A stretch of 63,684 bases of DNA from IMG/VR virus record IMGVR_UViG_3300017754_001974, positions 1-63,684 of that record; one strand, 5' to 3'. Made by a program: the position numbers and the translations under genes. This DNA is from a virus (Duplodnaviria > Caudoviricetes). A model generated the notes under the pieces. That model was given only the letters and a program-made list of their open reading frames with translations, was not told the DNA's origin and did no database searches. Below, piece by piece: positions 14,516-34,776 of the stretch. Numbering within the stretch: the first letter of the stretch is position 1; every line of letters starts with the position of its first letter.

Positions 14516-16048
14516 ATGTTACCAACTAAATCAAATCATACAAAAGACGGATGTGTTACAACATCTTCCAATTGTGTTATATGGCAAGGACCAGATCTTA
14601 ATTGTATCAATTTATGTAATGGTGATAGTATTAGCGAAGTAATAGCTAAACTAGCTTTAGAGTTATGTGATTTAATAGAACAAACATCTATTGATGGATT
14701 TAATATTACTTGTTTAAATGCTTTACCTATTCCACTTGATTTTCATGATTTAGTACAATTACTTATTACTAGAATTTGTGCATTAGAAGCAGAAGCTGGA
14801 GGCGGTGGAGGTGGAGAATTTCCTCCTATAAGACCTGATGGGTGTCCGAATTGTACGGTAGATTTACCACCATGTTTACAATATCAAAATCCAGCAACAC
14901 AAAGTTTAGTTACTCAACTTGATTTAAGTGATTATGCTGCTTTAGTAGCTACTGAATTATGTGAAACAATTGCAAAAGTTACAGAACTTCAAGAAACAGT
15001 ACTACAAAATAGTACTGATATTACAAATTTAGATACTAGAGTAACTAATTTAGAAGCAAGTTCTTCTGCAACTCCAACATTACCTAATGTAGATATTAAA
15101 TGTATTAATAATTTATTATCTACACCATTAACAACTGCAGTAGTTGCAATTGCTGATGAGTTATGTGATTTAGAATCATCAATAGGAACTATAACAGAAA
15201 TTCTAAACACTGCATTAACGCAATGTCCAGGACTTGATAGTTCTCCAGCTTTGTCACAACCTGGTGTAATGAGTAGTCTTACAGGATGGACAAGTTCTGC
15301 AAATAGTTTAACTGAAACAATAACCAATCTTTGGTTAACTGTTTGCGATATGAGAGGAGCTATTATGACTATACAAACAAATTGTTGCGGTACATTATGC
15401 TCTTCTATTAATGTAGATTTTAGTGTTACAGTTGATAGTCAAATAAATCTTCTTTTAACTGGAATTATTCCAACAAGTTTTACTGAATGTAATCCCTTAG
15501 GAACTCTTTTTACAATTATTGGAGAAGGTTTTAGTGGAAGTATAGGTAGATTTAATGTTCCAAATCTTATTGGTAATCCTTTTGGAATTAATATTCCTGC
15601 AGGATTAAATGTTAATGCAGATTTTACTGTATCAGCAAATCTTTGTTTACAAGATGTAAGCGGTTCACAATGCGAATCTACATTAACTTATGTTTACAAA
15701 TCAACAATAGCTTGCCCTGTATTAACATTAACTCCTGGAGATACTACAATCGGATATTCATTTCCAAATATAGTAGGAAATCCAATTTATTATAATATTG
15801 AGTTATTAAATTCAAGTGGTACTAGTGTAATACAAACTCAGTTAAGAGCTAATCCAACAATTGGTCCAGTAACTGGTTCATTTACAGGTTTACTATTAGC
15901 AACAACATATCAAGTTAGAATTAAATATAGTTCTGATAATATGACATACTTACGTTGTCCACTTAATAGTACATCAACTACAACTCCTAGTTGTACACAA
16001 ATTGATTTATTATCTACAGTAGCAACTATTGAAATAACCCCAACATAA
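14516..16048 (+). CDS. Cys-rich tail fibre with coiled coil and C-terminal FN3-like domain
   Basis: CVIWQGPDL.C N-terminal module, heptad segment (ITNLDTRVTNLE), FTGLLLATTYQVRI FN3 signature. Confidence 0.7.
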   Translation: MLPTKSNHTKDGCVTTSSNCVIWQGPDLNCINLCNGDSISEVIAKLALELCDLIEQTSIDGFNITCLNALPIPLDFHDLVQLLITRICALEAEAGGGGGGEFPPIRPDGCPNCTVDLPPCLQYQNPATQSLVTQLDLSDYAALVATELCETIAKVTELQETVLQNSTDITNLDTRVTNLEASSSATPTLPNVDIKCINNLLSTPLTTAVVAIADELCDLESSIGTITEILNTALTQCPGLDSSPALSQPGVMSSLTGWTSSANSLTETITNLWLTVCDMRGAIMTIQTNCCGTLCSSINVDFSVTVDSQINLLLTGIIPTSFTECNPLGTLFTIIGEGFSGSIGRFNVPNLIGNPFGINIPAGLNVNADFTVSANLCLQDVSGSQCESTLTYVYKSTIACPVLTLTPGDTTIGYSFPNIVGNPIYYNIELLNSSGTSVIQTQLRANPTIGPVTGSFTGLLLATTYQVRIKYSSDNMTYLRCPLNSTSTTTPSCTQIDLLSTVATIEITPT

Positions 16049-16057
16049 TATTAAGAT

Positions 16058-17563
16058 ATGGCCTGTGATCATTCTCAACCATGCGGTTGTAACCAAGACG
16101 AACTAACAACACTTCCAGATCCATGTGATACCACACCTTGTATAGATGGGGAACCATGTGATGAGATTATTGATTGTAATTGTGTTAGATATAGTGGTGC
16201 ACCTATTCCTCAGTTTAATGTTGAAACAGGTGATTCCTTATGTGATATTATTACTGATCTTATAGGATTAGGAGGAATACCAGGTGCAAGTGCTTATAAT
16301 ATAGCAGTTGCAGATGGATTTGTAGGAACTGAAGAAGAATGGTTAGAATCATTAGTTGGACAACAAGGAACTGCAGGATTAAAAGGAGATAAAGGAGATG
16401 ATGGGGAACCTGGAGGTCAAGGTGAAAGAGGTTTTACTGGTGATCAAGGTCTCTCAGGATTATCTGGTTTTTTACCACAAGATGATACAGGTTGGCATAA
16501 CTTAGAAGGATTTGCTTACTATCAAGGTCCAGCTACTTCTATAATACCACAAGCTAGAAGAATTAATAGAAATATATATTTTAGAGGAAATGTCGTTATT
16601 CCTATTTCATCTACTGGTACATCAGCAGGTAGTGTTGATCAGTTAACACTAGTACCTCTAAATGTCATAGCTAATGGTACAAATGGAAAATATTATGAAA
16701 GTACTCCATATTGCCATACATATGGTTATAAAACCACAGGAACTCATGCGTCAGATACAACAGGTATGTGTTATCTAAATTATGATGGAGCTATTACATT
16801 TAATGCTGAAAAATCAGTAATACCTTTAGCAGTTTTACCTGCAGATATGATAATTGATAAATCTTGGTCATCAAATTGGACACCTATAGCAAGAAGGATT
16901 TATACAACTCCAAATGAAGATACTGATCATGGTTCAGTAAGTTTAACTGCTTTTGTAACTATAATTATGAGTACTGAAGGTAAGTTAACTTTACAATGTG
17001 TTAGAGATATTGAAAATAATAATCCTGTTGCAACTTATGGTTTAAAATCATCTTTATTTAGATCTTTTTCTAGTGTAATTACAGCAGGTCAAAACATTCA
17101 AGAATATAAATTTTCTGGAACTGGTGCTACTGGTAATTGGATAGGTGGTAATGAAACAACAAGTGAACAATATCCATTTACTATAGATGCAACTTGGCAT
17201 ACTGATTTAGGTGGTTTTATATTTAAATTAGATGATATAGTTTTAACACTACCACCAGTAGTATTAGCAACAATAACTCCTCTTACAACAGGAGCAATAA
17301 CTTCTACATCTATTACAATGAATGCTAATATAGCTAGTGCTGGTAATGGTGATATAATATATAAAGGATTCTGTTATTCAAAAACACAAAATCCTCCAAC
17401 TGTAAATAATTATTATGTTTTAAATACAAGTCCTGGCTTATCAATAAGCAATACAGTACTTACACCATTAACACCAGATACTACATATTATATCAGATCA
17501 TTTGTTGTAAATCAAGCTGGTATTGTTTATGGAACACTATATACATTATCAACACCAGCATAA
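16058..17563 (+). CDS. Tail fibre with collagen-like repeat and FN3-like domain
   Basis: CVRYSG module paralogous to the previous gene, GASAY.IAV..GF.GTEEEWLESL.G motif, Gly-X-Y run (about 16358-16470), LTPDTTYYIRSFVVN FN3 signature. Confidence 0.8.
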   Translation: MACDHSQPCGCNQDELTTLPDPCDTTPCIDGEPCDEIIDCNCVRYSGAPIPQFNVETGDSLCDIITDLIGLGGIPGASAYNIAVADGFVGTEEEWLESLVGQQGTAGLKGDKGDDGEPGGQGERGFTGDQGLSGLSGFLPQDDTGWHNLEGFAYYQGPATSIIPQARRINRNIYFRGNVVIPISSTGTSAGSVDQLTLVPLNVIANGTNGKYYESTPYCHTYGYKTTGTHASDTTGMCYLNYDGAITFNAEKSVIPLAVLPADMIIDKSWSSNWTPIARRIYTTPNEDTDHGSVSLTAFVTIIMSTEGKLTLQCVRDIENNNPVATYGLKSSLFRSFSSVITAGQNIQEYKFSGTGATGNWIGGNETTSEQYPFTIDATWHTDLGGFIFKLDDIVLTLPPVVLATITPLTTGAITSTSITMNANIASAGNGDIIYKGFCYSKTQNPPTVNNYYVLNTSPGLSISNTVLTPLTPDTTYYIRSFVVNQAGIVYGTLYTLSTPA

Positions 17564-18777: not shown

Positions 18778-19959
18778 ATGAAAAACTTTGAACAAAAATT
18801 AAGAAAACTAATGGGTTTTAAAAAGTCAGTAGCTTACATGGCTAGTAGACTTAACACAACGGAAGAAAAAGTTAAAGAAGAAATAAAAAAAATTAGACTT
18901 CAAGGTACTAACAAATATGAAGGTATTACTGAAGCCAAAGTTAATCTAGAAAATAAAACAACTGAGTTAAAAGGAATTGCTTTTAGTGAACCTCAAAGCC
19001 CAGAAGAAATAATTGAACTTCTAAAAATTGATACTGATATATGGAAGTTATCTTCATACTGGAATAAACAACAATCTGATCATTGGCTAGTCTCAGCTCT
19101 AGTATCACAAAAGACACTCACACAAGAAAATCTTCTAGTTGAGTGTCTTTCTAACTTTAAGCCAGACTATACTCCACTTAAGAAAAGTGAAATCTTTGTT
19201 AATAATGATGAAGATGATAGTTGTGCAATACTTTCAATTCAGGATTTACATTTTGGTAAAGAAGGAAATGAAGATATTAAATCAAGATTTAAAAAGACAT
19301 TATATAGACTTTTAGCAAACTCACATAATGCTCATAAGTTAAATAAGATTATATATGTTGTAGGAGGTGATTTAATCAACGTAGATACCTTTAATGATAC
19401 AACAACGAGTGGAACACCAGTTGACTCTTCAAAGGGTGCTATAGAGTCTTATTCAGAGGCATTTAATACCATGTACTGGAGTATTAATTTCTTAAAGCAA
19501 TTCTGTACTGAATTACAAGTAGTTTATATTCCAGGTAACCATGATAGATTAAGTTCTTTTCATCTAGCTCATGCATTAGAAAATGCTATTAGAGATGAGA
19601 AAATTATATGGGATTGTGAATACTCTGAAAGAAAGGTTATAACCTTTGGAGTAAATATGTTTGGATTTGAACATGGAGATACTAAAGTTGAACCATTAAT
19701 TTATGCAACTGAGTTTTCTAAGGATTGGGGTAACACTTCTAATAGAGTAATCTTTACAGGACACAAACATATTAAGAGAACAACTACACTTGTAACTGAG
19801 AATGAAGTGAATGGAATATCAATTAAGATACTACCATCATTATCTAATACAGATTACTGGCATTATCATAATAAATATACGGGTTCTAAAAGAGCTGCTG
19901 TTATGGAAATCTATTCTGAAACTGAAGGAAAAGTTGCAGAATATAACGTAACATTTTAA
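18778..19959 (+). CDS. Calcineurin-like metallophosphoesterase (Mre11/SbcD-like) with N-terminal HTH-like segment
   Basis: Complete motif set QDLHFG, GGDL, PGNHD, EHGD, TGHKH. Confidence 0.88.
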   Translation: MKNFEQKLRKLMGFKKSVAYMASRLNTTEEKVKEEIKKIRLQGTNKYEGITEAKVNLENKTTELKGIAFSEPQSPEEIIELLKIDTDIWKLSSYWNKQQSDHWLVSALVSQKTLTQENLLVECLSNFKPDYTPLKKSEIFVNNDEDDSCAILSIQDLHFGKEGNEDIKSRFKKTLYRLLANSHNAHKLNKIIYVVGGDLINVDTFNDTTTSGTPVDSSKGAIESYSEAFNTMYWSINFLKQFCTELQVVYIPGNHDRLSSFHLAHALENAIRDEKIIWDCEYSERKVITFGVNMFGFEHGDTKVEPLIYATEFSKDWGNTSNRVIFTGHKHIKRTTTLVTENEVNGISIKILPSLSNTDYWHYHNKYTGSKRAAVMEIYSETEGKVAEYNVTF

Positions 19960-22111: not shown

Positions 22112-22470
22112 GTTTCTCAAAAAGCTATAAAATAGATTTATATTCTTGCAAGTTTACAGTTATTGTAACAGATAACATGTTTAATGAAGAAAAAAAAATC
22201 TATAATAAATATGATGAAGAACATGATGACTATTCCGATATAGATGGTTTAAGTATATGTTTTTCTCATGATGATTATTATATATTATTTAAAGAGGGTA
22301 TTATAACACATAATCTTATTGCTCATGAACTATATCATCTTGTATGTAGTATGATGGATCATAGAATGATTGATGATGAAGAAGCAAGAGCATGGTTAGT
22401 AGGTTATGTTACATCTCTAGTTTATCAAACATTTGATAAAGCAAAAATTTTAATAGGACATGGCCACTAA
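22108..22470 (+). CDS. Small zincin-type metallopeptidase-like protein
   Basis: LIAHELYH (HExxH) with downstream DEEARAWLVG. Confidence 0.75.
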   Translation: MSFSKSYKIDLYSCKFTVIVTDNMFNEEKKIYNKYDEEHDDYSDIDGLSICFSHDDYYILFKEGIITHNLIAHELYHLVCSMMDHRMIDDEEARAWLVGYVTSLVYQTFDKAKILIGHGH

Positions 22471-25400
22471 AAAAAATGATGCTGGAGCATCTCAACAAAG
22501 TAGTTCAGGTGATGGTTCATTAAATACCTTTAATACAGGTATGATGATGGACATTGATGATATTGTTGTACCACAGGGTGTATGGTTAAAAGCTAGAAAT
22601 GCTATTAATAATTCTGATAAAGGTCATCTTGGTGTTTTAGGTAATGAACCATCTAATGTTTTATGCCAAACACTACGTGATAATATGATCATCATTGGTA
22701 TGATATATTTAACAGATGGTGTATGGTCAGTTTTTTCAACTAATAATATTGATTCAGAAATAGGAACTTATACTGAAGACTCTTGTTCTTATTTTAGACT
22801 TTTTCGTGATACTCAAGGTTGTTTAAATTTTAAAACAACTAATTTAGTTAAAGGTGTATCTAAAGAAAACTTTGATTGTACAAGACAATTATATTGGGAT
22901 GATGGTTTAAATCCATCAAGAACACTTGCCTTAACTAAAGACTTTTCAGATATTGTTGATGAGTATTTTATAAATAATAGAATACGTACAATAACAACTC
23001 CAGGTACTAGTTTTGGAAATTCATTTACACCTGGAGGTACTACTGTAAATCCAAATCAAGTATATCCACAAAATGTACAACCAAGTATTCCGACTATAGG
23101 AACTGTTATACCATTCAGTCTTCCAGATCAATATCAATTTACATGGTATTTTGGTGGTGGAATGGCATTTAGAGCTTCATATAAACTTGGAGGACCAACA
23201 ACATGTGGAGGTAATCAAGGTTATATACATACTTCAGCATATAGAGAACAAATGGATAATCCATTTGATAAATGGCAAGTTAGTATTGACCAAGTTAATT
23301 GGTCTACTCCTCAACAAGTTGGAAATATTCCATTTCCAAATACTTTCAATGATGTTCAGTTTAATAATTTAACTGCTGGAACTTATAATATATATTTTAG
23401 AAAATTTCCACAAATAAATGTTGTAAGAACACAAACAATAACATTATATGATCCTGTTGAATGTAGTAATGCTGAAGCTGCTGGTCAATATTCTGCATTA
23501 CTTGGAGACTCTACAGAATTTTGTGAGATAGATAATTATGATGATACTAAATTAGATTGTGATAAAATAAGATTAGCAACATTAGTTAATGCTCCATGTG
23601 TAAGACTTAGAAAAAGTAATTTTGCAGGAAGTATTGCTAATGGCTCATATCAAGTATTTATAGCATATACAATTAATGATCAAAGAGTTACAGATTACAT
23701 TGGTGTAAGTAATGTTCAATCATTATTTACTCATGAAAATGTAAACAGTTCATTAGAAATTGTAATTAGTTCTATAGATGAAAGATTTGACGAATTTGAA
23801 TTGGTTATAGTTAATTTCTTTAATCAACAGACTGTAGCTAAAAAACTAGGTATATATAGTACTGCAACTGGTACAATTACAATAGATTATATTAATAGTG
23901 AATTAATTACAGTTCCAATTACTCAATTACCAATTACATCAACAGTGTATGAGAAATCAGAAGCGATGTATAAAAATGGTGATTATCTATTAAGAGTGTC
24001 TCCAACTGGATACTTAGATTTTAATTATCAACCAAGAGCTAATCAAATTACTACTAAATGGTTTGCTACAGCATATCCTGAAGACTATTATTCTAAAGGT
24101 GGTAATAAAACCACATATCTTAGAGACGAGGTATATACATTTTTTATTAGATGGGTATATGATACTGGATATAAATCTCCATCATTTCATATTCCAGGTA
24201 GAGATAAAACAACATATGATGCAAGTACTACAGGTATAGATCATTCTAATAGTCAAGTTGATACTTCGGAAAATTCTTTAGAACTATGGAAAATTAAAAA
24301 TACAGCTTCTAAAACACTACCACTTGGTCCAATAGATTATAATACAGCATTACCAAATTCAGAACAAGGAGATGGTGGTATTGTTGTAGCTGAAGGTTTA
24401 ATGGGTTACTGGGAATCAACTGAATTATATCCTAATGATAAAGAAGAAATTTGGGGTGATAATTGTGGTAGAAGAATTAGACATCATAAATTTCCTGATG
24501 TAGATGTTATTCCACATTTTCATGGGGATAATACTGATCTTACTTTAATAGGAGATACTAGTCAAAGTAACTATTGTAATGTATCTAGTCATACTAGACC
24601 AAATACATTTGCTTTTACAAAAGGTTCAAATTATAAAATTATAATTCTAGGTGCTAAATTTGATAATATATTACCACCAGTTGATGAATTTGGAAATAGA
24701 ATTCCTGGAATCATTGGTTATGAGATATTAAGAGGTACAAGAGAAAATAATAGAACTATTATAGCAAAAGGTGTAGTTAGTAATTTAAGAGAATATGACT
24801 ATCCTGAATTTAGTAGTACTTCAAATAAAAAGAAAGGTTTATTTTTAAATTATCCATTTAATGATTTAAGAGATGATGAATTACTTGCAACTTCAAAAGT
24901 TGATGGTGGTTGTAGACCTTCTTGTGATATAAGCAGACATCAACCATTAAGAATATTTAATAAAACAAATATTGCTTTTCATTCACCAGATACAAATTTC
25001 GGAAATCCATTTTTAGATGTTGATGAAATTAAATATACAGCTGAACTTAATGGAGTTGCTGAAGGTAAATTTACACAAGTAAATAAACATCCTAGACATG
25101 CTTTACCTAATGATGCAGCCTTGATTGTAGCAGGAATATTTGGATTTATTACAGCAATGAATTACACTTTTTTTAGTGGATTTTGGTCAGGAACTCCTGA
25201 ATTTCGTACAGAAGTTGGAGGTAATGTTTTAGGAGTAGCTAATAAACCACCTATTGATGATTTACCTGGTCCATTTGATAGACTAGTTAGTATTATATTA
25301 AAACCAGTAGCATTTGTTTATTATACAGTACAAGTTACTCAAGGTTATTTAGATGCAATGATGGCATTAATGTCTACAAGACAATATGCACTTCAACATA

Positions 25401-27856
25401 AAGCACATTGTTTTTATTCAAGTTTAAGAGTAATTACACCATCTAGACAAAATGTAATTAAATCAGCATATATAAAAGATGTAAGACAAACAATAGATGA
25501 TGTTTATACTATAAATAATATTTACAGAACTAATTTTGTTTGGTTAAATACTTCAAAAGGATATATACCACCTGTACTTCAAGATACTAGTAGATATTCA
25601 GTATATAAAGTTTTAGGAAGAAATGGTATAACTATTTCAGATCCTACAAATAGAATAGTATCAACTACTTCTTCTTGTATGTATGCTACATTAAAATTAA
25701 AAATTAGAAATCTATATGGTCAATTAAATTCTATTAGACAATTACCAGTAAGTAATTGTTTATATTCTATACCGAAATTTACTAGTCCAGATTTATATGT
25801 AGATGGTACAGGATATACTGTATACGGAGGAGATAATTATATAGGAAGATATACTGAAAAAAATACCTTTTTCTTTTTCTACGAATGGTTAATGGATCAA
25901 CCAGATGAAATTGAATTTGACTATAGAAAATATGTAATGATCCCATATCCTAGATATTGGATTAATACAGAAAAATATGATACAAGTAAAATATTAGATA
26001 ATTTACTTCCAGATTTTGGATGTAATGGTAGTGATGCTGATGATACTCAAGATGGTAATCTTCGTGCACTTAAAGATACTTATCAAAATAGATTTCCTAG
26101 TGATAGTGCTTCCTTAACAAGGAGTCAATGTGGAGTATTTAGTCTTAAAACTTTACGTTGTTCAAGTTCTAAGGATGATGCTTTATTTAGAATAGATGGA
26201 TGGTTCTATTTATTTTATAGCGGTGTTAAAGATTTCTTTGTTGAATCTGAAGTTAATTTAGCTCAAAGAGACTATGATGAAGTTCCTGAAAAAAGATTCT
26301 ATGATAAGAATTCATACACAGATCTTGATCAAATGTTTGATAGTAGTATAATTAAAAAATCTAACTATTATAAATATGATAAATCATTAAGTATTGCTAA
26401 GTATGCTAACATATTTCCATCTTGGAGTTCAATGCAACCAAGAAGTTATAATCCAGCAATTGCTGCAAGTTGTTATCAAAACTATCCAAAAAGAGTAATA
26501 TATTCTTTACCTAGTTCTAAAGAACAAAAGAAAGATTATTGGAAAATATTCTTAGCATTTAATTATAAAGATTTCAATTCAACAGTAACATCTATTTCTC
26601 CTATTAGTAAGAATGGAGCAATGATACATTTTAAGGATATTAGTCCTACACAATTTATCGGAGTTGATACTTTACAAACTGATATAGGAACAAAGATTAC
26701 TATTGGAGATGGTGGATTATTTCAACAACCATTACAGAATATAGTTAATACTGATGCTCCATATGAATATGGTTCATGTCAAGATAGAATGTCTATTATC
26801 AATACTCCATTTGGTTTATTCTGGATAAGTCAAGATCAAGGTAAGATATTCCAATATGGTGGTCAGATAAAAGAGATTTCTGCAAAAGGGATGAGATGGT
26901 GGTTTGCTAGATATTTGAAATATGAGTTAATAACAGTATTTCCTAATTTTCCAATTTTACAAAATCCTGTAGCTGGAGTTGGTTGTCAAGCAATCTATGA
27001 TAATAAGAATCAGATAATCTATTTTTCTAAAAGAGACTATAAACCACTTAGTCCAAATATAGTTTATAATGCTAGTACTAATAAGTTTACATTAAGTACA
27101 ACAGGTCTTATAATATCATTAACTGATCCTAGATATTTTGAAGATGCATCTTGGACTATATCATATGATCCTAAAACTGAAGCATGGATCTCATTTCATG
27201 ACTGGCATCCTAATTTTATGATACCAGAAAGAAATACTTTTACAACTGTTTTAGGAAGTAGTTTCTGGAAACATAATAATACTTGTACAAGTTATTGTAA
27301 TTTTTATGGGGTAAATTATCCATTTGAAATTGAAACAATAATTAATACTGGACAGACTGTAACTACTACAAGAAGTGTTGAGTATATGATGGAAGCATAT
27401 AGATATGCTGAGAATTGTTTTGATGGACACCATCTATTAGATTACAATTTTGATGAGATGATAGTATATAACTCTGAGCAAATTTCTGGATTATTAAGGT
27501 TAAATCTAAATAGTAAAAATAATCCTATTGGTAATTTGCAATATCCAATTGTAAATAATGGTGTAATAGATGTACTATATAGTAAAGAAGAAAATAAGTA
27601 TAGAGTAAATCAATTTTATGATATAACTTTGGATAGAGGTGAGTATACAGGTAATACAAATATTGTATGGAATACTAGTGCTAATGGTTATATTAAAAAT
27701 TTAAATCAAGCATCTTTAAACTATAGTAAAGATCCATTAGAACATAAAAAATTCAGACACTATTCAAATAAAGTATTATTCAGAAAGAATATAAATAACA
27801 ATATCAAAATGTTATTTAAAATATTCAATGTTAAACAGCAGATATCAATCCGATGA
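22460..27856 (+). CDS. Tail stabilisation / muzzle protein (P22 gp10-like, crAss-type)
   Basis: 1798 aa; NTFNTGMMMD N-terminus, LYWDDGLNP, YLRDEVY.F.I, IRHHKFP, GGDNYIGR, WTISY....AWISFHDW.P, typical of crAss-like stabilisation proteins. Confidence 0.82.
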   Translation: MATKKNDAGASQQSSSGDGSLNTFNTGMMMDIDDIVVPQGVWLKARNAINNSDKGHLGVLGNEPSNVLCQTLRDNMIIIGMIYLTDGVWSVFSTNNIDSEIGTYTEDSCSYFRLFRDTQGCLNFKTTNLVKGVSKENFDCTRQLYWDDGLNPSRTLALTKDFSDIVDEYFINNRIRTITTPGTSFGNSFTPGGTTVNPNQVYPQNVQPSIPTIGTVIPFSLPDQYQFTWYFGGGMAFRASYKLGGPTTCGGNQGYIHTSAYREQMDNPFDKWQVSIDQVNWSTPQQVGNIPFPNTFNDVQFNNLTAGTYNIYFRKFPQINVVRTQTITLYDPVECSNAEAAGQYSALLGDSTEFCEIDNYDDTKLDCDKIRLATLVNAPCVRLRKSNFAGSIANGSYQVFIAYTINDQRVTDYIGVSNVQSLFTHENVNSSLEIVISSIDERFDEFELVIVNFFNQQTVAKKLGIYSTATGTITIDYINSELITVPITQLPITSTVYEKSEAMYKNGDYLLRVSPTGYLDFNYQPRANQITTKWFATAYPEDYYSKGGNKTTYLRDEVYTFFIRWVYDTGYKSPSFHIPGRDKTTYDASTTGIDHSNSQVDTSENSLELWKIKNTASKTLPLGPIDYNTALPNSEQGDGGIVVAEGLMGYWESTELYPNDKEEIWGDNCGRRIRHHKFPDVDVIPHFHGDNTDLTLIGDTSQSNYCNVSSHTRPNTFAFTKGSNYKIIILGAKFDNILPPVDEFGNRIPGIIGYEILRGTRENNRTIIAKGVVSNLREYDYPEFSSTSNKKKGLFLNYPFNDLRDDELLATSKVDGGCRPSCDISRHQPLRIFNKTNIAFHSPDTNFGNPFLDVDEIKYTAELNGVAEGKFTQVNKHPRHALPNDAALIVAGIFGFITAMNYTFFSGFWSGTPEFRTEVGGNVLGVANKPPIDDLPGPFDRLVSIILKPVAFVYYTVQVTQGYLDAMMALMSTRQYALQHKAHCFYSSLRVITPSRQNVIKSAYIKDVRQTIDDVYTINNIYRTNFVWLNTSKGYIPPVLQDTSRYSVYKVLGRNGITISDPTNRIVSTTSSCMYATLKLKIRNLYGQLNSIRQLPVSNCLYSIPKFTSPDLYVDGTGYTVYGGDNYIGRYTEKNTFFFFYEWLMDQPDEIEFDYRKYVMIPYPRYWINTEKYDTSKILDNLLPDFGCNGSDADDTQDGNLRALKDTYQNRFPSDSASLTRSQCGVFSLKTLRCSSSKDDALFRIDGWFYLFYSGVKDFFVESEVNLAQRDYDEVPEKRFYDKNSYTDLDQMFDSSIIKKSNYYKYDKSLSIAKYANIFPSWSSMQPRSYNPAIAASCYQNYPKRVIYSLPSSKEQKKDYWKIFLAFNYKDFNSTVTSISPISKNGAMIHFKDISPTQFIGVDTLQTDIGTKITIGDGGLFQQPLQNIVNTDAPYEYGSCQDRMSIINTPFGLFWISQDQGKIFQYGGQIKEISAKGMRWWFARYLKYELITVFPNFPILQNPVAGVGCQAIYDNKNQIIYFSKRDYKPLSPNIVYNASTNKFTLSTTGLIISLTDPRYFEDASWTISYDPKTEAWISFHDWHPNFMIPERNTFTTVLGSSFWKHNNTCTSYCNFYGVNYPFEIETIINTGQTVTTTRSVEYMMEAYRYAENCFDGHHLLDYNFDEMIVYNSEQISGLLRLNLNSKNNPIGNLQYPIVNNGVIDVLYSKEENKYRVNQFYDITLDRGEYTGNTNIVWNTSANGYIKNLNQASLNYSKDPLEHKKFRHYSNKVLFRKNINNNIKMLFKIFNVKQQISIR

Positions 27857-30800
27857 GCAAACTAGAAAAATTCATAGTAGATCCAAAAGGACAATATAAT
27901 CATCCAGGAAAAAAAACAAAAATACCTAATGCGGATGGTAGCATTACAATGAAAGGGGTACCTTATCCTGTATTAGGTATAGATGATGAGGGTAATCAAC
28001 AAATGATGTATCCTAATAGAGACTATCAATTTCCTGGAAATAGTGTCTATGAAATTCCTATGGCTCAATTTGGTTTTGAGAAAAAAGAGAAGGAAGATCC
28101 TAATAAATTATACCAAGAATATCTAAAGTTACAAGATGAAGTTAATCGAATACAAGAAAATGAAGATAGTTATGAAAGTAGATTAAATGCTGCTTTAATA
28201 CCTATGGTTGGAAAAGATGTTAAAACTTCAGGATTTGTACCTGATAATATAGTAAATTGGAAAGATCCTATTACAGGACATGAAGCTGCTTTTTGTATAT
28301 CTGGAGTATGTTATGCATTAACTGAATTTGGAGAACCCATTAAATATTTTGATAATGTAGAAATTCAAGATGATGTTGTGGCTGGAAAAGTTAAAGGTAG
28401 ATATTTAGATCAAAGTGAAAAAGGACTTAAATCTGGAGATATATTACAATTTAAAAGAACCTCATTAAGAGGTGAAGATAAAGGTGGTCCTTTTCATGCA
28501 TATTTAGTTACAACAGTTCATCCACCTGATAAAGATGGTTATAGAAAAGTAGATGTTTTTGGAAATAGTGGGGGTGGTGTTCAAGGATTTGATTCATATT
28601 TTTTAGGACCAGATAATAAAATTCAAGGACACGATACACAAGTTATTAAAAGAGAAATTGATCCTGAGTTACATAGTAGTATTATTAAAAGAAATAAATT
28701 AAAAGAATCTATAGAAAAAGATTATCCTAATATTTTTAAAAAATTAGATGTAGATACAGACACTTTTAAAGCAACAGCCTTTGTAAAACGTGATAATCTA
28801 TATAATTATATAAGTGAATCTGGTGATCATGATGAATTTATTAATCTTAAAGAATCTAAGATAGATGAGATTTTAACTCAGTTTTCAAATCCAGATTTTA
28901 AGAAGAATTTTATGAAGCAACAACAAGTCAGTAATGATGAGTATGATGCTATTGTAAAAAATGTAATAGGTATATATGGTGCAGAATCAAAATTTGGAAC
29001 TGGATATAAAAGAGAACCTTTATGGTTACAAAAGAAATTTGGTTCATTAACAGACTCTATTGGTCCATTTCAAATTAATCCTAAACAATTACAAACTGAT
29101 AGATTTGATAGAAAAGATTTCTTTGATCCAGTAATAGGATCTGAAATAGCTGCAACATTTCTTGCTGAGAATTTACCATTACTTAGAAGTAGAGCTAAAG
29201 CACAACCTGGAGATAAACATTATAGTGAGAATTTAAATCAAGATAACTATTTAGATTTTATTCCATACTTAATGAATCAACAAGCTTTGTTAAAAGGTGA
29301 TGCGTATACTAAAGAAACACATCCTGGAAGATTAGCAAGATTTTTTGGAGTAGAACCAAAACCTACACCAGAAAATAAATTAGTTGGTGATTCAGAATAT
29401 AACTTAAGAGTAAAAGATTATGCTAAAAAGATTGGTTTAGATATTGTTCCAGCTAGTACTGATGTATTTGAAACACCTGAAGAACAAGAGGAATATTATA
29501 ATTTCTGGCCTAAATATCAAGATGGTGGTGCATTTAATCCAGACACAGATGAGTTTATAGGATATGCAGATGAATTACCTAAAGATGAAGTAGAAGAAGA
29601 AATTGAATATAGTCCATCTAGAGTAATACTTAGAGAACTAGGTAATATTAGAAGATATGATAGTAAAAAAGAAGGTATTATAAAAGAACCATATAAGAAC
29701 TCACATGAGGTTTATATGGATAAAAAAGGTTGGAGAAATGTTTCACCTGAAGAATATCAATTATTATTAAAACAGTATCCTGGTGCAGATAAGTCACCTG
29801 GTTGGATTAGACCAATTAAAAAAGCACAAGATGGATTACAGACTGGTGAGAAATTTGTGGAAATGGATATTCCAAGTCATAGGTATTATCCAGATTTATC
29901 AGAAGGTGAAACTTTTATAAAAGATGCTAGAGTTTGGAATCCTGTAACAAATGCTAAAATAGTACCTACACGTGATTTAAAAGGTGGTCATTATTCTAAT
30001 AATGTTATTAGACGTATAGTGGAAGCAGCATATAGAAATGATATGCTACCTCATACTTATACAGGAATGTCTATGGCATTACAAGAAACTAATTTAGGTA
30101 AAACAGATCCTAATCTTGGACATGTTATAGATGTTAAACCATATTCAAATCCAACACCAGAAGATGATTTATTTAGAGCTTTAAAAGAAAAATATAAAGA
30201 AGCAGATAGACTAGGATATAAAAATGATCCATTACAAAGATTACAAACATATAATGGAAACTATTTAACTAGAGATACTGAAAAAGAATATCATAAGGGT
30301 CAGTCTCAAGCATTTTATGGAGTACCTGTTCCTGAAGAAGGAATTAATTTAAGAAAAAATCCATTGTATGCAAAGAAAATATTTAATTTAAGAGATAGTG
30401 TTTTATTACAAAATCCTGAACTAATTAATTTTGTAAATAAAGCAACTAATGAATATGCTGATAAGTATAGTATTGAACAAGCACAAAAAGCTGCTAGAAA
30501 TGTTGACTTTACAGATATGAATCAAGTAATGTCTGCTATGGCTAAATTTGCTAAAACTAATCCTAGAGAATATAAAAGATTACAACAAAAATATTTAAAG
30601 AGTAATAAAAAACAAACAGGAGGAACATTCAATCCTGATACTGATGAATTCATTGGATATAGTGATGAATTAGATACTTATCAAAAAGGTGGAAATAATA
30701 ATCTTGAAAAAACACTTGCTGATTTAAGAAGACAATCAGCAAAGCCTGTTGGTAGTTTTTCTGACTGGAAAACACAATCAGCAAAACCTGCTAGTACATT

Positions 30801-33800
30801 ACCTACTGCACAACAAAATTTTGTTAATGCTACTAAAAATATTCCTAGAAATAGGAAGCCAGTTAAAATAGAAACTCATTATACAACTAATGAAGAAATG
30901 GCTGCTAGACCTTATCCAGCATCTGGTTCATTAACTCCTGTATATCCTGAAGCACTTTTAATGGCTGGACCTGCAGCTAACATGGCAAAATCTGCATTAG
31001 GCACTGTAGGTACTGCTATGAATCTTCCATTTACTGTTGGTGCCACAACTATACCAGGTCTTACAGCTAATAATTTATTGACTGGTTATTTTGCATCTAA
31101 AGTACCAGGTAATTTACAAGAAGGTGAATATATTAATGCTGCTTTAAATGGGTTACCTATGGTAGGTCCTATTTTAAGAGAATCTTATAATGCTGCAAAA
31201 ACACTTCCTTTTTTTAAACAAACACCTAGTTCTAATAATATATCTAGATTATCAAATAATACTACATTAGGAAATCCTATAGGTAATGCTGAAGATTTAC
31301 GTTCTGTAAATCCTAATTTTAAAACTTGGAGAGATCCAGATACTGGAAATATAGTTTATCAATTAGATAAAGAAGATTATGCTTTTGGTAATGACTGGGA
31401 AACAATTGCATCAAAAGATTTTAAAGATTATATAACTGGATGGTTAAATACTAAACCAAATTCTGGAGGATATAGTGAAATTCCAGAATTTAATGAAAAA
31501 CTTAGAGAACTAACAGCTTTAGCAAGTTATGGTAAAAGAGCTGGCATTAAAAGCTTTAATGAATTAAAACAAGTTGATAAAGCAAAACAAGAGATGGATA
31601 GAATAAGATACTGGGGTCCTAGTGTCACAGATCTTAATCCATCAGATGACTTTTATAAAATGTGGTTTCCTGGAGGTGGTAAAGCAGAAGTTTTTCCAAA
31701 TCCTAAAAGAAAACCTTTTACTGGTATTGAGGCATTCCAAAAAATAAATCCAAATAAGTATGGAGGATCTATATATAAAAATGGAGGTTCATATAATTCA
31801 AATACTGATGAATTTTTAGGATATACTGATGAGTTAGATAGTTATCAGGATAAGGGTCAAGTTAATTATACTGGTAAAAAAGGAATTAAAGGAGAAGTAC
31901 CAGTTAATAAAGAAGGACTTCCTTATGTTAATTTAAGAGAAGCTGAAATTACATCTACAAATCCTAATAGTAGACCAAATCCATATTCACCTGCTTCATT
32001 AAAAGATCTTTTTACTTTTATGAATCCTATGAATTGGGGTGTAAATGATTATTCAAATGCAGGTACTTTTAATAAAGCTTATAGTAGTGCTAAAAAATCT
32101 GGGGAAGAAGACTTTTTATTTAATAATAAAAGATATAATACAAAATATGCTGGTACACCTAGACAAGAAGTTGGTGCTTATGGGATAAATGGAAAACCTA
32201 TAGATTTAAATTCGCTTGATTATCCTGCTCATGTTAATTTATATCCACCATTTGGAAGATATCTTCCAGGACATATATCAGCATCTACAGGAGATGATAA
32301 TTATTCTGTTGATTATTCTGCTTATGGAAATAGAAATAGTGGTATACTTCATAGGAGATTAAAACCAGGAGAACAATCTTTTAATGTTTATAATTATGAC
32401 AATGATGTCTTTGAAAAAAAAGCTATAAATTTACCTGAAGGTAAACATGCTTTTAATGCTACTAGATCTAAACCTTCTGATTGGAATTTATTTACAAATA
32501 ATTGTGCTGATAATGTTTGTGATGCTTTTGGAATACCTAGAGATGCAGGATTACAATATCCTTCAGAAGCATTAGAAAAAATTAAAAGGACTTATCCTAC
32601 ATTAGATGTAACAGGAAGAACCCATCGTGATTATGGTAGAATGATAAGAAAATTAAAAAATCCAAAAGATCTTTTAAATAAAATAGATGAAATTATAGGT
32701 ATTATATCATCGCCAGATATATCAAATTCATCTTTTGCAAGAGAAATAGTTGAAAAAATACAAGAGGCTTTATCTAAAGAAGGTTACGGATTACCAAAAT
32801 CTACTAAAATTTGGGATGAAAATGGTAAGTCTGGTTCATTTGATGGAGTACTAGGAGAAGAAACTAAAGAAGCATTAGCAGATTGGAAATCTAAAAATAA
32901 AAATAAGAAAAAAGAAGGTGGAGAAAATTTACCTACTTATCAAAAGAAAGGTCAAGTTAAACCTACTTATTTATCACCTGAAGAATTAGGTGCTAGACAA
33001 ATAATGGAACCAAATACAACAAGAGTTGCTCCTGTAGTAAATCATGTTAAAGAAGCACAGTATCATGCACAAGCTGCTAAAGATGTTGCAAATCCAAAAA
33101 TAACCGATGATGATTTTAGAGATAAACATGGATATAATAAACATGTTTATCAAATGAATAATGATCCTCAGTATAGAGCAGAAGTAGAAGCTAATGCAAA
33201 GATAACAGCTAATAAAAATGGTTCAATAGACTACCCATCTACATATATGGATAGTAAATCTTATACTGGTAATCCTAATCTTAACTACATGATACCAAAT
33301 GGATTAACTGGAGAAGCTAGGAAAGGATATGAAGAATCTCAAATGAATGTAGTTGGTGCAGCATTACCAATACCAGGATTACAACAAGTAGGTAGAGTTC
33401 CAAGTGTTTTAGGTGCAGGTAAAAATGCAATTATAGCTGCAGGTAAAACATTAGATAAATTTGGAAATGTTATTACAACACAAACACCTTTAAGAAATGC
33501 TTATAAATTAAACCCATATGCATTAAAAGAAAAAGATATAGACATGTTATGGAGATGGCAAGCTGATAATCTACCTGCTGGATTACTTAAAGTAAATGCT
33601 GTGCCTGCAGAATATACAGGTAGATGGTTTCAGATAGGAGATCCTACTGATGTTTTTGAATATATGAAAATGAGACCAGGTCCTGGAACATTAAAAGGAT
33701 TAGCATTACCTAAAGGAGTAGCAACATTACCAGAAGATGCCGCAAAATTTACAGGTGCTGAATACTTAAAAGATGTTGAAAGAATTGTTCCTACTGAAGC

Positions 33801-34776
33801 ATTACAAAATACAACAAATTTTAGATTAGAAAATAATCCTTTTTTACCTGGTAAAGTTGATAATCCTAATTTTCTTGAAGATTTTACAGGTTTACAACCA
33901 CTATTTAAAAATGCAAAAGTTACACCACATTGGTTCAGAGGATACCCAGTAAATAATACAGGTAATATAAATATGAATGAAATAATGTCTTTAGCAGCAC
34001 CTAAAGGAAATATGTATGGACAAAATCAAGTTTTAGTACAACAATCAAGATTATTAAATCCAGCAACAAGAGCAAAATTTTTTCAAAATCAAGCTCCAGA
34101 AATTAATGCAACTATAAATAGAGATTTTCTAGGTGATAGAATAATGAAAGTTCCTAAAGATTTTAATAATAGGATAACTCCTGAAAATTATGAAGAATTT
34201 GTAAATAGAATACATGGTTCTACAGGATATAATTTAGCAAGTGATTCTTGGAGAAAACCTACAAATTTAGGAATTGGAAATTATAACAAAACAGGAACAG
34301 TTTTTTCTGATGCTCCATTAAATAATTTAGGTAAGGATATTATAAACGCACATGAAAAAAATCATGGTATGTTTGCAGGAACTTTATCTGCAGAAATGAG
34401 TGATGATTTATTAAGACCATTTGGAACTAAAAAAGTAATACCTCATTATCAAGGTAAACATCAAGCAGATGAAGTATTAGCAAGAATGGGTCAATTTAAA
34501 AATGCTATCGGTATGGGAGATGATCAAATTTTTACTTTAGGTCATTTGAATTTAATACGTAAGAATTATGCAAATAGTTTTATAGATAATGGTATAACTG
34601 AAATGCTTAAAAAAATCAAACCAGGAAGTAAAGGAGAAAAAGAGTTTTTAAAAAATATGAATAAATATGCATTTGGATCTGCACCATTCATTATAGGAGC
34701 AGGAGCATTGAAAAATAAAAAACAAGGAGGTACCTTCAATCCTAATACTGATGAGTTTTTAGGTTTCGTAGACTGA
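27853..34776 (+). CDS. Modular virion cargo protein: CHAP/NlpC-like, two lysozyme-like, permuted papain-like + PG-binding and zincin-like modules
   Basis: 2307 aa; FCISGV...GDIL.F...FHAYLV; GAESKFG...SIGPFQI; ALQETNLG; PGHI...WNLFTNNCAD; IQEAL...G.FDGVLGEET..AL; HEKNH...DEVLAR; modules separated by repeated linkers. Confidence 0.7.
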   Translation: MSKLEKFIVDPKGQYNHPGKKTKIPNADGSITMKGVPYPVLGIDDEGNQQMMYPNRDYQFPGNSVYEIPMAQFGFEKKEKEDPNKLYQEYLKLQDEVNRIQENEDSYESRLNAALIPMVGKDVKTSGFVPDNIVNWKDPITGHEAAFCISGVCYALTEFGEPIKYFDNVEIQDDVVAGKVKGRYLDQSEKGLKSGDILQFKRTSLRGEDKGGPFHAYLVTTVHPPDKDGYRKVDVFGNSGGGVQGFDSYFLGPDNKIQGHDTQVIKREIDPELHSSIIKRNKLKESIEKDYPNIFKKLDVDTDTFKATAFVKRDNLYNYISESGDHDEFINLKESKIDEILTQFSNPDFKKNFMKQQQVSNDEYDAIVKNVIGIYGAESKFGTGYKREPLWLQKKFGSLTDSIGPFQINPKQLQTDRFDRKDFFDPVIGSEIAATFLAENLPLLRSRAKAQPGDKHYSENLNQDNYLDFIPYLMNQQALLKGDAYTKETHPGRLARFFGVEPKPTPENKLVGDSEYNLRVKDYAKKIGLDIVPASTDVFETPEEQEEYYNFWPKYQDGGAFNPDTDEFIGYADELPKDEVEEEIEYSPSRVILRELGNIRRYDSKKEGIIKEPYKNSHEVYMDKKGWRNVSPEEYQLLLKQYPGADKSPGWIRPIKKAQDGLQTGEKFVEMDIPSHRYYPDLSEGETFIKDARVWNPVTNAKIVPTRDLKGGHYSNNVIRRIVEAAYRNDMLPHTYTGMSMALQETNLGKTDPNLGHVIDVKPYSNPTPEDDLFRALKEKYKEADRLGYKNDPLQRLQTYNGNYLTRDTEKEYHKGQSQAFYGVPVPEEGINLRKNPLYAKKIFNLRDSVLLQNPELINFVNKATNEYADKYSIEQAQKAARNVDFTDMNQVMSAMAKFAKTNPREYKRLQQKYLKSNKKQTGGTFNPDTDEFIGYSDELDTYQKGGNNNLEKTLADLRRQSAKPVGSFSDWKTQSAKPASTLPTAQQNFVNATKNIPRNRKPVKIETHYTTNEEMAARPYPASGSLTPVYPEALLMAGPAANMAKSALGTVGTAMNLPFTVGATTIPGLTANNLLTGYFASKVPGNLQEGEYINAALNGLPMVGPILRESYNAAKTLPFFKQTPSSNNISRLSNNTTLGNPIGNAEDLRSVNPNFKTWRDPDTGNIVYQLDKEDYAFGNDWETIASKDFKDYITGWLNTKPNSGGYSEIPEFNEKLRELTALASYGKRAGIKSFNELKQVDKAKQEMDRIRYWGPSVTDLNPSDDFYKMWFPGGGKAEVFPNPKRKPFTGIEAFQKINPNKYGGSIYKNGGSYNSNTDEFLGYTDELDSYQDKGQVNYTGKKGIKGEVPVNKEGLPYVNLREAEITSTNPNSRPNPYSPASLKDLFTFMNPMNWGVNDYSNAGTFNKAYSSAKKSGEEDFLFNNKRYNTKYAGTPRQEVGAYGINGKPIDLNSLDYPAHVNLYPPFGRYLPGHISASTGDDNYSVDYSAYGNRNSGILHRRLKPGEQSFNVYNYDNDVFEKKAINLPEGKHAFNATRSKPSDWNLFTNNCADNVCDAFGIPRDAGLQYPSEALEKIKRTYPTLDVTGRTHRDYGRMIRKLKNPKDLLNKIDEIIGIISSPDISNSSFAREIVEKIQEALSKEGYGLPKSTKIWDENGKSGSFDGVLGEETKEALADWKSKNKNKKKEGGENLPTYQKKGQVKPTYLSPEELGARQIMEPNTTRVAPVVNHVKEAQYHAQAAKDVANPKITDDDFRDKHGYNKHVYQMNNDPQYRAEVEANAKITANKNGSIDYPSTYMDSKSYTGNPNLNYMIPNGLTGEARKGYEESQMNVVGAALPIPGLQQVGRVPSVLGAGKNAIIAAGKTLDKFGNVITTQTPLRNAYKLNPYALKEKDIDMLWRWQADNLPAGLLKVNAVPAEYTGRWFQIGDPTDVFEYMKMRPGPGTLKGLALPKGVATLPEDAAKFTGAEYLKDVERIVPTEALQNTTNFRLENNPFLPGKVDNPNFLEDFTGLQPLFKNAKVTPHWFRGYPVNNTGNINMNEIMSLAAPKGNMYGQNQVLVQQSRLLNPATRAKFFQNQAPEINATINRDFLGDRIMKVPKDFNNRITPENYEEFVNRIHGSTGYNLASDSWRKPTNLGIGNYNKTGTVFSDAPLNNLGKDIINAHEKNHGMFAGTLSAEMSDDLLRPFGTKKVIPHYQGKHQADEVLARMGQFKNAIGMGDDQIFTLGHLNLIRKNYANSFIDNGITEMLKKIKPGSKGEKEFLKNMNKYAFGSAPFIIGAGALKNKKQGGTFNPNTDEFLGFVD
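29515..34776 (+). repeat. Dispersed in-frame linker repeat GGx[FY]N[PS][DN]TDEF[IL]G[YF]xD
   Basis: Copies at 29515-29577, 30610-30693, 31756-31857 and 34720-34773; a degenerate copy (KEGG...YQKKG) at 32911-32952. Confidence 0.92.

Follow-up and report, generated by a model that had tools for sequence, protein, structure and literature searches.

The 63.7-kb viral record IMGVR_UViG_3300017754_001974 of IMG/VR (63,684 nt, estimated to be 53% complete), which is the whole stretch of DNA that was analysed and which we call the window, contains a gene for a giant protein in which unrelated modules are separated by copies of a short conserved peptide. The gene is a single open reading frame (ORF) of 2307 amino acids (aa) at 27853..34776 on the + strand. 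We call its product P0001, and we number its homologs as P00xx and the related loci as L0xx. P0001 is predicted to be a modular cargo (ejection) protein that probably travels inside virions and enters the host by injection. On balance, we lean towards P0001 being a polyvalent cargo protein whose peptide repeats are putative hinge and docking tags that stay uncut.

An earlier note on this DNA had described a linker-punctuated ORF, and a motif scan, shuffles, and BLASTP of the protein against itself confirmed that observation as a whole. The motif GG-x-[FY]-N-x-x-TDEF-[IL]-G-[YF]-x-D is present four times in P0001, in linkers that start at 29515, 30610, 31756, and 34720 and match the strings that were first quoted. 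(These and all features below are on the + strand.) Linker 1, YQDGG-AFNPDTDEFIGYADEL-PK, spans 29515..29583 and has a homology breakpoint at aa 580. Linker 2, KQTGG-TFNPDTDEFIGYSDELDTYQ-KGG, spans 30610..30693 (breakpoint at aa 947), and linker 3, KYGGSIYKNGG-SYNSNTDEFLGYTDELDSYQ-DKG, spans 31756..31857 (breakpoint at aa 1311). The terminal tag, KQGG-TFNPNTDEFLGFVD, spans 34720..34773, with the stop codon directly after it. The TDEF cores are at aa 565, 930, 1318, and 2299 (nt 29545, 30640, 31804, and 34747), with Gly-Gly before each. Scanning all six frames of the window gave four matches to the motif, every one of them in the frame of this ORF. A degenerate DNA pattern gave 4 forward matches, 0 reverse matches, and 0 matches for a reversed control. 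The 9-mer at the C-terminus of P0001 has 3 internal copies, while 0.02 would be expected (from 100 shuffles). The first three cores are 1095 and 1164 nt apart. A supposed degenerate copy at 32911 is KKEGGENLPTYQKKGQ, which lacks the TDEF core and is a separate type of seam; it recurs as GGENLP.YQK.GQ in P0002, P0004, and P0007, and is also a homology breakpoint.

As DNA, the four copies in the window are only 71–77% identical over 48 nt, with longest common runs of 8–13 nt. Among the amino-acid-identical codon pairs, 39 of 68 use the same codon, as compared to 46.3 expected from the codon usage of the ORF. Since there is no conservation at the DNA level among the copies, selection is on the peptide and not on the DNA. 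The DNA shows no signature of a recombination site, which is what the linker had been proposed to be. An assembly artefact was ruled out by the low identity between the copies and by the presence of the same architecture on independent contigs.

The stretches between the linkers are mutually unrelated, as had been claimed: BLASTP of P0001 against itself gave no off-diagonal high-scoring segment pair (HSP) at E ≤ 10. Using the HSP limits among homologs, we divided P0001 into blocks, named M0 to M7, and at least 7 of these have separate sets of homologs. Each of the 32 homologs of similar length covers 2–27% of P0001, at 35–85% identity, and another 21 shorter homologs carry mostly M7 or M4. In 12 proteins with the TDEF linker, module families (such as F3, F4, and F5) are found at differing positions. 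For instance, the papain-like module comes after M0 in P0005, P0006, and P0034, after the second linker in P0004, and after the third linker in P0001. At the same locus, relatives have only parts in common with P0001, and its modules recur in other orders, so the idea of an exchangeable-cassette payload stands.

The sole part of P0001 that is common to most relatives is M0, a conserved beta-rich N-terminal domain of ~65 aa (aa 6–74, 27868..28074; HSP block 1–75). Our alignment of M0 (A6) has 33 sequences and 20 invariant columns, and AlphaFold2 predicts six short strands (pLDDT ~59–68). At E ≤ 0.001, the M0 profile matched the representatives of 4135 clusters (50% identity), and 3253 of these still matched at E ≤ 1e-10 (E = 1.9e-29 for P0001). 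Among the 150 best listed matches, the M0-bearing proteins have 93 to 3028 aa, with M0 at the N-terminus, internal, or at the C-terminus. When compared to IMG/VR, the profile matched 190 loci, of which we kept the best 80; the contigs are ~5 to 130 kb, and the long ones are mostly 80–130 kb. In one genome each of 185,579 prokaryote species, the profile matched just 3 short contigs, all from metagenome-assembled genomes. Among 50,697 phage records, tblastn with M0 had a sole match, to Leptolyngbya phage Lbo-JY46 (E = 3e-3), and tblastn with the full P0001 had none.

Lbo-JY46 is the sole cultured phage with a detectable M0, and it could serve as an experimental entry point. Its 495-aa "hypothetical" protein (L088 8980–10467) comprises M0 and a transglycosylase-like C-terminal domain, whose Pfam matches are sub-threshold (20 bits vs 27), and the gene lies directly after a 1654-aa gene. 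We also noticed that the M0 profile matches two stretches each in P0056–P0058, P0060, P0064, and P0069, so a single protein can contain M0 in duplicate.

A GG-flanked tag, with a short aromatic/acidic core between Gly-Gly hinges, occurs throughout the M0 family, and the TDEF linker is its rare, long variant. We found this variant in 14 of all the proteins that we collected and in 2 of 148 further M0 representatives; a stricter DNA pattern with the NP[DN]TDEF core matched 2 other IMG/VR contigs. The common form, GGWL[DNE]KY (GGWLxKY, then Q.GG), is present in 101 of the 148 further representatives, and a tag of either of our family-wide patterns (an A/B tag) forms the C-terminus in 101 of the 148. 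Hybrids, such as a C-terminal GGWLDFVD, connect the two forms. After removing 13 duplicates from 131 sequences, and then 4 of the remaining 118 that were shorter than 300 aa, we found that in 55 of 114 family proteins, the protein's own C-terminal 9-mer recurs at internal positions (88 copies, vs 1.24 expected). P0001 has this arrangement too, with three internal copies and one copy at the exact C-terminus.

The tag is also specific to M0 proteins. For counts in the related loci, we excluded those from the window itself (L001–L004) and duplicates (L005–L007). Of 859 ORFs with at least 100 aa, 39 end in an A/B tag, and 39 of 39 are the M0 ORF. If L088 is excluded as well, the motif occurs 107 times in 82,416 aa of M0 ORFs and 3 times in 415,337 aa of the other ORFs from the same loci, or 1.30 vs 0.007 per 1000 aa, which is a ~185-fold difference. 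We had considered that the tag might be common to all cargo genes, but this is ruled out by the 39 of 39 and by the C-terminal peptides of the next cargo gene, which are different.

The copy of the TDEF tag at the C-terminus has a form of its own. From 27 internal and 13 terminal copies (40 in all), we derived the consensus [KY]-Q-x-G-G-T-F-N-P-[DN]-T-D-E-F-[IL]-G-[FY]-x-D. Internal copies run on with E-L and a second seam (P-x-A-Q-x-G or x-x-Y-Q-x-x-G), while the 13 terminal copies in the clade end alike, with all 13 stopping at the same Asp. Leu is found at +4 in 12 of 13 terminal copies and in 1 of 27 internal copies; Asn is found at −1 in 11 of 13 terminal copies and in 4 of 27 internal copies. 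(Fisher p-values for these differences overstate the independence of the copies, because the copies are related by descent.) This end cap follows at least five unrelated last modules in the 10 proteins that we checked, so it is specific to the position and not to the module.

Do modules swap at the tags? For the TDEF clade, we used HSPs of ≥60% identity and ≥80 aa, and we clustered the internal breakpoints. Of 81 breakpoints, 28 are within 25 aa of a TDEF core, while 5.5 would be expected from coverage (~5-fold enrichment). The others are mostly at short seams (KAQ.G, GGSLQKYQ, or GGENLP.YQ) or at the motifs YKLNPW or DWLRGYKPV, and some are inside modules. For the family-wide analysis we began with the same 118 sequences (3 of 80 ORFs from the loci had been dropped earlier, as they were cut at the end of the locus), and we scored the 56 sequences that had one or more breakpoints as well as one or more internal A/B linkers. 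Of 108 internal A/B tags, 84 have a breakpoint within 30 aa, yet many breakpoints are elsewhere: nearly all tags are junctions, though junctions occur away from tags as well. So the earlier claim that linkers are swap junctions is correct in that breakpoints are enriched there, but most breakpoints fall at other seams or inside modules.

The enrichment of breakpoints at the linkers might also be explained if the linkers are passive seams, that is, flexible spacers that are conserved by descent and as tolerated crossover points for recombination that is illegitimate or relies on short homology, with no role in binding or processing. The minimal seams KAQ.G and GG..L..YQ, which are also junctions and do not have the long core, are consistent with this, as are the models, in which the linkers are unstructured. 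However, in a passive spacer, 13 of the 16 positions of the core would not be nearly invariant across 40 copies, nor would a distinct end cap be kept after five different last modules. Such a spacer would not be ~185-fold denser in M0 proteins than in the neighboring giant proteins, which are also modular. Also, synonymous sites are not conserved and the common runs are short, so the DNA offers little homology for crossover. Overall, we consider passive seams to be improbable.

The ORF upstream (22460..27856; 1798 aa), which lies outside the modular protein, is a likely tail "muzzle" protein: it matches the virion structural protein family phrog_37948 (E = 2.5e-50), and BLASTP against the muzzle protein gp44 of crAss001 found two weak but collinear matches (E = 3e-7 and 7e-6). 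The ATG of the P0001 gene overlaps the stop codon of this ORF as ATGA. In crAss001, the gene directly downstream of the muzzle gene is gp45, which encodes cargo protein C1, so the P0001 gene is in the C1 slot, given the weak homology of the muzzle. The order of a muzzle homolog and then an M0 gene is the same in L006, L007, L008, and Lbo-JY46. In L007 and L008, this next gene has only M0 in common with P0001; in L006, it has M0, the small module M2a, and linkers in common.

Residues 425–552 of crAss001 gp45 form one resolved domain that is bound to the portal, and a helix (214–245) is bound to the tail barrel, according to Bayfield et al. 2023 (PMC10172136). The structures are PDB 7QOG and four more entries, and we compared positions in gp45 by using the GenBank sequence and the text of that paper. 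gp45 (L092 1988–4516) has GGWLN at aa 427–431, inside the 425–552 segment, and the 214–245 helix begins four residues after another GG. As a separate observation, gp45 has many Gly-Gly pairs after an aromatic residue (AYGG, AFGG, FAYGG); one of these pairs lies at, or just before, the start of each of the two segments that were resolved in the virion. gp45 has another GGWL (aa 155–158) within its predicted membrane helix.

We propose that P0001 would be the first cargo (ejection) protein, in the C1 (gp45) slot, of an uncultured phage that is distantly related to the crAss-like phages. The tags would remain uncut. Their Gly-Gly hinges would keep the modules independent, so that the chain could be stored and threaded through the tail partly unfolded. 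The tag cores would act as handles, specific to the lineage, that dock on some conserved component of the virion (the portal, the tail barrel, or the interior of the capsid), and docking would work like that of the GG-flanked segments of crAss001 gp45. If the tags are docking handles, then any module placed between them would be packaged and delivered.

We also considered that P0001 might be a processed polyprotein. The tags would then be cleavage sites for a phage protease (M7 or M4 in cis, or a protease in trans) or for a host protease, and the modules would be freed in the capsid or after ejection. This could account for why 13 of 13 clade members have their C-terminus exactly where the tag core ends, which is what one would predict if every module had once ended at that point, and for why Gly-Gly precedes the cores (G at −6 in 38 of 40 instances). 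P0001 also holds two peptidase-like modules whose catalytic residues are invariant, and the paper on polyvalent proteins proposes that domains are released autoproteolytically by a metallopeptidase (PMC5512222). However, a peptidase-like module is not a constant partner of the tags: of the 56 proteins with at least two tags, just 22 contain such a module (M7, M4, or HETxH), and a HExxH string is absent altogether from 25. The systematic differences between terminal and internal copies are not expected if cleavage simply recreates the terminal form. And the GGWLN of gp45 is within a segment that is modelled continuously in the mature virion (PMC10172136). These three points are why we lean towards uncut handles. 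PHROGs identified no protease among the part of the ORFs that was scanned in this incomplete contig. Taken together, the indirect evidence leans against obligatory processing in cis at the linker, and a processed polyprotein seems unlikely.

Two specific cleavage mechanisms were dropped. By motif, M4 might be taken for a PPPDE/DeSI-type peptidase with a Gly-Gly-directed cut at KQTGG. But M4 has no match to this family in Pfam, the leads from the ESM Atlas are of the LRAT/NlpC type, and M4 is present in 11 of the 56 multi-tag proteins. Asn-Pro autocleavage (NPTH-like) was rejected as well: the NP pair is not in GGWLxKY, and it varies in the TDEF form (N in 35 and D in 5 of 40 copies; P in 38 and S in 2).

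Several points weigh against our proposal of uncut docking tags. BLASTP of P0001 against gp45 found no detectable similarity (best E = 1.7), so the analogy to crAss001 rests on the position of the gene and on a 5-residue peptide; and gp45 has been resolved in virions, whereas P0001 is known here from its gene. Our analysis identified no docking partner for the tag. Some phage head proteases have Glu-directed sites, for which the acidic residues beside the core (DEL, TDE) would also be suitable, and since the window is about half of a genome, a protease that acts in trans may lie outside it. Across the family, 109 of 743 breakpoints are within 30 aa of an A/B tag, vs 66 expected, which is an enrichment of just 1.65-fold, and all of our breakpoint counts depend on where BLAST HSPs end and on motif patterns that we drew up once we had seen the data. 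Finally, the AlphaFold2 models are poor, with a mean pLDDT of 51.4 for aa 1–950 (from a 13-row alignment) and 48.8 for aa 1690–2307 (23 rows). Linkers 1, 2, and 4 are within low-confidence, non-domain stretches of these models (526–630 for linker 1 and 900–950 for linker 2), which would suit disordered linkers, but given the quality of the models this is weak evidence. We also predicted a complex of M0 (from the 33-row alignment) with the region around linker 2 (aa 900–960); the score was 0.00, which has no bearing either way.

Another explanation for conserved but uncut tags is that they act on the host side. After ejection, the tags could bind the host envelope (peptidoglycan, the membrane interface, or a periplasmic chaperone) and hold or refold the modules at the site of entry. 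The repeated cores, which are aromatic and charged (W-L-x-K-Y, or F-I-G-Y with Asp/Glu), would suit multivalent binding with low affinity. Furthermore, several modules resemble cell-wall enzymes, and PG_binding_1 is found in 13 of 21 homologs that carry M4. But the tag classes are specific to phage lineages and differ strongly in charge (the TDEF form is acidic and the WLNKYK form basic), which is easier to reconcile with co-evolution with a phage partner than with binding to a host structure that is conserved. We think that a handle for the host is quite doubtful.

A broader version of our docking proposal is that M0 and the GG-flanked tags form a general cargo-addressing system of crAss-like phages, by which modules are loaded, held on the 12-fold portal or tail barrel, and injected. 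We offer this tentatively, as a possibility rather than an expectation. TDEF would then be a lineage-specific, re-keyed tag, and the tags would stay uncut and would co-evolve with the virion, by analogy to the cargo-loading peptides of encapsulins. Such a system would account for the retention of M0 and the tag in thousands of phage lineages that swap everything in between, and it would be a natural plug-and-play scaffold for delivery.

Crass-like phages are among the most abundant viruses of the gut and the ocean, and how they load and inject a large protein cargo is barely understood. Here, a family of 4135 clusters (at 50% identity) keeps only a 65-residue head domain and a short tag, and it swaps the enzyme modules that lie in between. 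Should the tag be a signal for docking or addressing, this would give a testable rule for which proteins phages carry, as well as a handle for engineering phage-delivered proteins. If it is a cleavage site instead, then tailed phages would have true polyproteins. Either way, the tag allows modules whose function is unknown to be delimited and catalogued straight from sequence. We did not find a published description of the tag: M0 and the junction/end tag are not mentioned in the available part of the polyvalent-protein paper (PMC5512222), and the available part of a review of Crassvirales has nothing on modular cargo.

The earlier note had likened the modules, by motif, to several enzyme classes. 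The proposed catalytic residues are indeed conserved, but sequence matches to Pfam, PHROGs, and PDB, along with fold checks, name almost none of the modules. When we compared P0001 and nine of its segments to Pfam at E ≤ 10, we found just sub-threshold matches to PG_binding_1 and PG_binding_2 and two chance-level matches. P0001 had no match in PHROGs, and phmmer against PDB sequences (gp45 included) found nothing at E ≤ 1. Foldseek of both AlphaFold2 models against PDB gave 0 matches at E ≤ 0.001; given this and the poor models, we do not claim a fold for any module. By motif, P0001 appears to contain two cysteine-peptidase-like domains, one transglycosylase-like domain, one peptidoglycan-binding domain, and one zincin-like domain.

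M1 (aa ~83–555, 28099..29514, from HSP limits and motifs) has a Cys-His peptidase-like part (C148, H215) and then a lytic-transglycosylase-like part, with E378 within GIYGAESKFG. Each of these three residues is kept in 8 of the 9–10 alignment rows that have a residue there, and these 8 are all of the homologs that carry M1. The only hint of a family for M1 is a single sub-threshold match to SLT, in the homolog P0009 (17.4 bits vs 21.3). M2a is a small module (aa 583–663, 29599..29847) that ends in a short KKAQDG seam, at the breakpoint at aa 663; it is found by itself in P0009 and P0010. M2b (aa ~665–920, 29848..30609) contains ALQETNLG (30076–30099) and is defined by homologous blocks in P0002, P0003, P0005, P0007, P0014, and P0043. 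It had been labelled as lysozyme-like, but we found no match for it to a family (Pfam) or a fold (AlphaFold2 model and Foldseek). M3 (aa ~950–1301, 30700..31755) has partial homologs in P0022, P0013, and P0023. It includes a Gly/Ala-rich and mildly hydrophobic stretch near aa 1049, with a Kyte-Doolittle peak of just 1.0; P0001 as a whole lacks a strongly hydrophobic segment (the maximum over 19 residues is 1.1).

M4 (aa 1383–1685, 31999..32907) has a papain-like domain in the order His-then-Cys (H1474, C1551) and a peptidoglycan-binding domain (aa 1631–1682). H1474 is kept in 21 of 21 alignment rows and C1551 in 20 of 21. The match of P0001 to PG_binding_1 is sub-threshold (18.1 bits vs a cut-off of 23), and the best match among the 13 homologs noted above has E = 2e-9. 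In the ESM Atlas, M4 is near clusters of LRAT, IcsB_M, TseH, and Lnb_N, with a score of 0.87, which is below the 0.9 level and so is only a lead. After M4 comes the variant seam KKEGGENLPTYQKKGQ (32908..32955), where 18 HSP ends cluster at aa 1686.

M5 and M6 together span aa 1702–2034 (32956..33954), with HSP limits at aa 1871/1892 and 2034. M6 is flanked by the motifs NAYKLNPY and PHWFRGYP. In the AlphaFold2 model, a helical bundle at aa 1734–1789 has a pLDDT of 86–92, and the rest of M5 and M6 is low. Similar motifs mark another cassette boundary: a variable domain family, whose interior is strongly divergent, opens with T.TPL.NAYK[LI]NPW and closes with DW[LW].GYK.V. In the window these boundaries are at 33496–33519 and 33925–33948, and the two motifs are also found in P0003, P0005, P0006, P0008, P0010, P0011, P0018, and P0025.

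M7 (aa ~2035–2289, 33955..34719) is zincin-like, with HEKNH at 34351–34365. It is the most conserved module of P0001, with 61–69% identity in 16 otherwise different proteins, and HEKNH is kept in 17 of 17 rows, as are H2167, E2168, and H2171 individually. Its pLDDT is 55–83. In the ESM Atlas, M7 is near LPD23 and LPD1, which are polyvalent-protein domains, with a score of 0.85 (also below the 0.9 level, and a lead only). A single alignment could not be used for M4 and M7 jointly because the M7 rows misalign. When compared to PDB at E ≤ 10, profile A2 gave 30 matches, with coiled-coil proteins (myosins) on top, but the best stretches were in the flanking columns 28–424 and not in the M7 block. 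The best match of profile A3 to PDB was to a peptidoglycan-binding domain, with E = 1.3.

The window has a G+C content of ~30%, and all of its large ORFs are on the + strand. The terminase large subunit, the portal, and the major capsid protein are encoded upstream of P0001. The closest relatives of the portal are from Lbo-JY46 (30% identity), the Cellulophaga phages phi17:2 and phi4:1 (26%), and crAss-like phages of the human gut (~23%). The P0001 gene, between the muzzle-like ORF and more giant ORFs, thus has a late or virion gene setting. The next ORF has 1524 aa and begins 44 nt downstream. It is the first of a block of giant genes (1524, 524, 920, 2057, and 4096 aa); we scanned the first four ORFs of this block and found no PHROG matches. 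By its position, the 4096-aa ORF at the end of the block (49977–62267) may be the virion RNA polymerase of crAss-like phages. Among the structural genes upstream, between tail-fibre-like and virion structural genes, is a DNA-repair-exonuclease-like ORF (18778–19959; phrog_704, E = 1.5e-46). At 14516–17563 there are two ORFs of ~500 aa with Cys-rich N-termini, and the second of these matches a collagen-like tail-fibre PHROG at aa 70–160.

In the related loci, the second cargo slot (next after the M0 gene) contains a gene with conserved C-terminal peptides of its own, in forms that end in ...RAQGYEIEELD, ...GGQVEYLD, or ...RNGSIVKAIKNL. Examples are at L040 10472–12805, L061 10858–13536, L082 10293–13271, and L032 11099–14284. 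Some M0 proteins end with these peptides, which suggests fusions between neighboring cargo genes. Two motif patterns that we tried for the point of fusion had no match.

Among known systems, P0001 can be compared to internal ejection proteins such as T7 gp16, to encapsulin cargo, to polymorphic toxins, to gp45, and to polyvalent proteins. T7 gp16 has a transglycosylase domain, which cuts the cell wall for entry. The 495-aa protein of Lbo-JY46 is like the gp16-type proteins, in a minimal form with M0 and a transglycosylase-like domain; it lacks the TDEF and GGWLxKY tags, whereas P0001 has at least 7 modules. In encapsulin systems, diverse enzymes end in a flexible Gly-rich linker and a short conserved peptide, which loads them into an HK97-fold shell. 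This is a functional analogy only, with no homology implied: the peptide of P0001 is internal as well as terminal, and its binding to the capsid is putative.

Polymorphic toxin systems, which Zhang and colleagues reportedly described in 2012, are said to have conserved junction motifs before the toxin, such as the VENN-type junction. Similarly, a short conserved peptide in P0001 marks the boundary where unrelated effector cassettes swap. Unlike those systems, P0001 has several cassettes in series, in a phage virion context, and its junction is not conserved at the DNA level. Also, the ORF map shows no small immunity-type ORF after the P0001 gene, between it and the 1524-aa ORF. The comparison to an array of polymorphic toxins, which was part of the original interpretation, or to one of polyvalent domains is apt: the close relative P0005 matches the Pfam family ART-PolyVal above the cut-off (52.4 bits vs 31.2). 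Cassette exchange and junctions at the linkers also survive from that interpretation.

Like gp45, P0001 is encoded directly after the muzzle gene, and gp45 is rich in Gly-Gly and has GGWLN. But gp45 has 842 aa instead of 2307, and it lacks M0 and recognised enzyme modules.

Polyvalent proteins occur in phages and conjugative elements, and it has been proposed that they are delivered into the host with the DNA (Iyer et al. 2017, PMC5512222). As described there, they are giant single chains with many unrelated effector-type domains (peptidases, cell-wall hydrolases, and ADP-ribosyltransferases), with strong mosaicism among relatives and a late or virion gene context, and by motif and context P0001 resembles them. 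It has at least two unrelated effector-type domains, in that it has at least 7 blocks and three conserved sets of catalytic-type residues, with folds that are predicted from motifs. Unlike the known polyvalent proteins, P0001 itself does not match any polyvalent-domain model in Pfam, and M0 and the repeated junction/end tag are not described in the available part of PMC5512222. Furthermore, the processing by a metallopeptidase that is proposed there would require a module that is absent from most of the tag-bearing relatives. Because P0001 combines M0 with at least 7 unrelated enzyme-like modules, we view it as a phage-type polyvalent protein: it occupies the C1 slot without being a homolog of gp45, and by architecture it belongs with the polyvalent proteins of phages.

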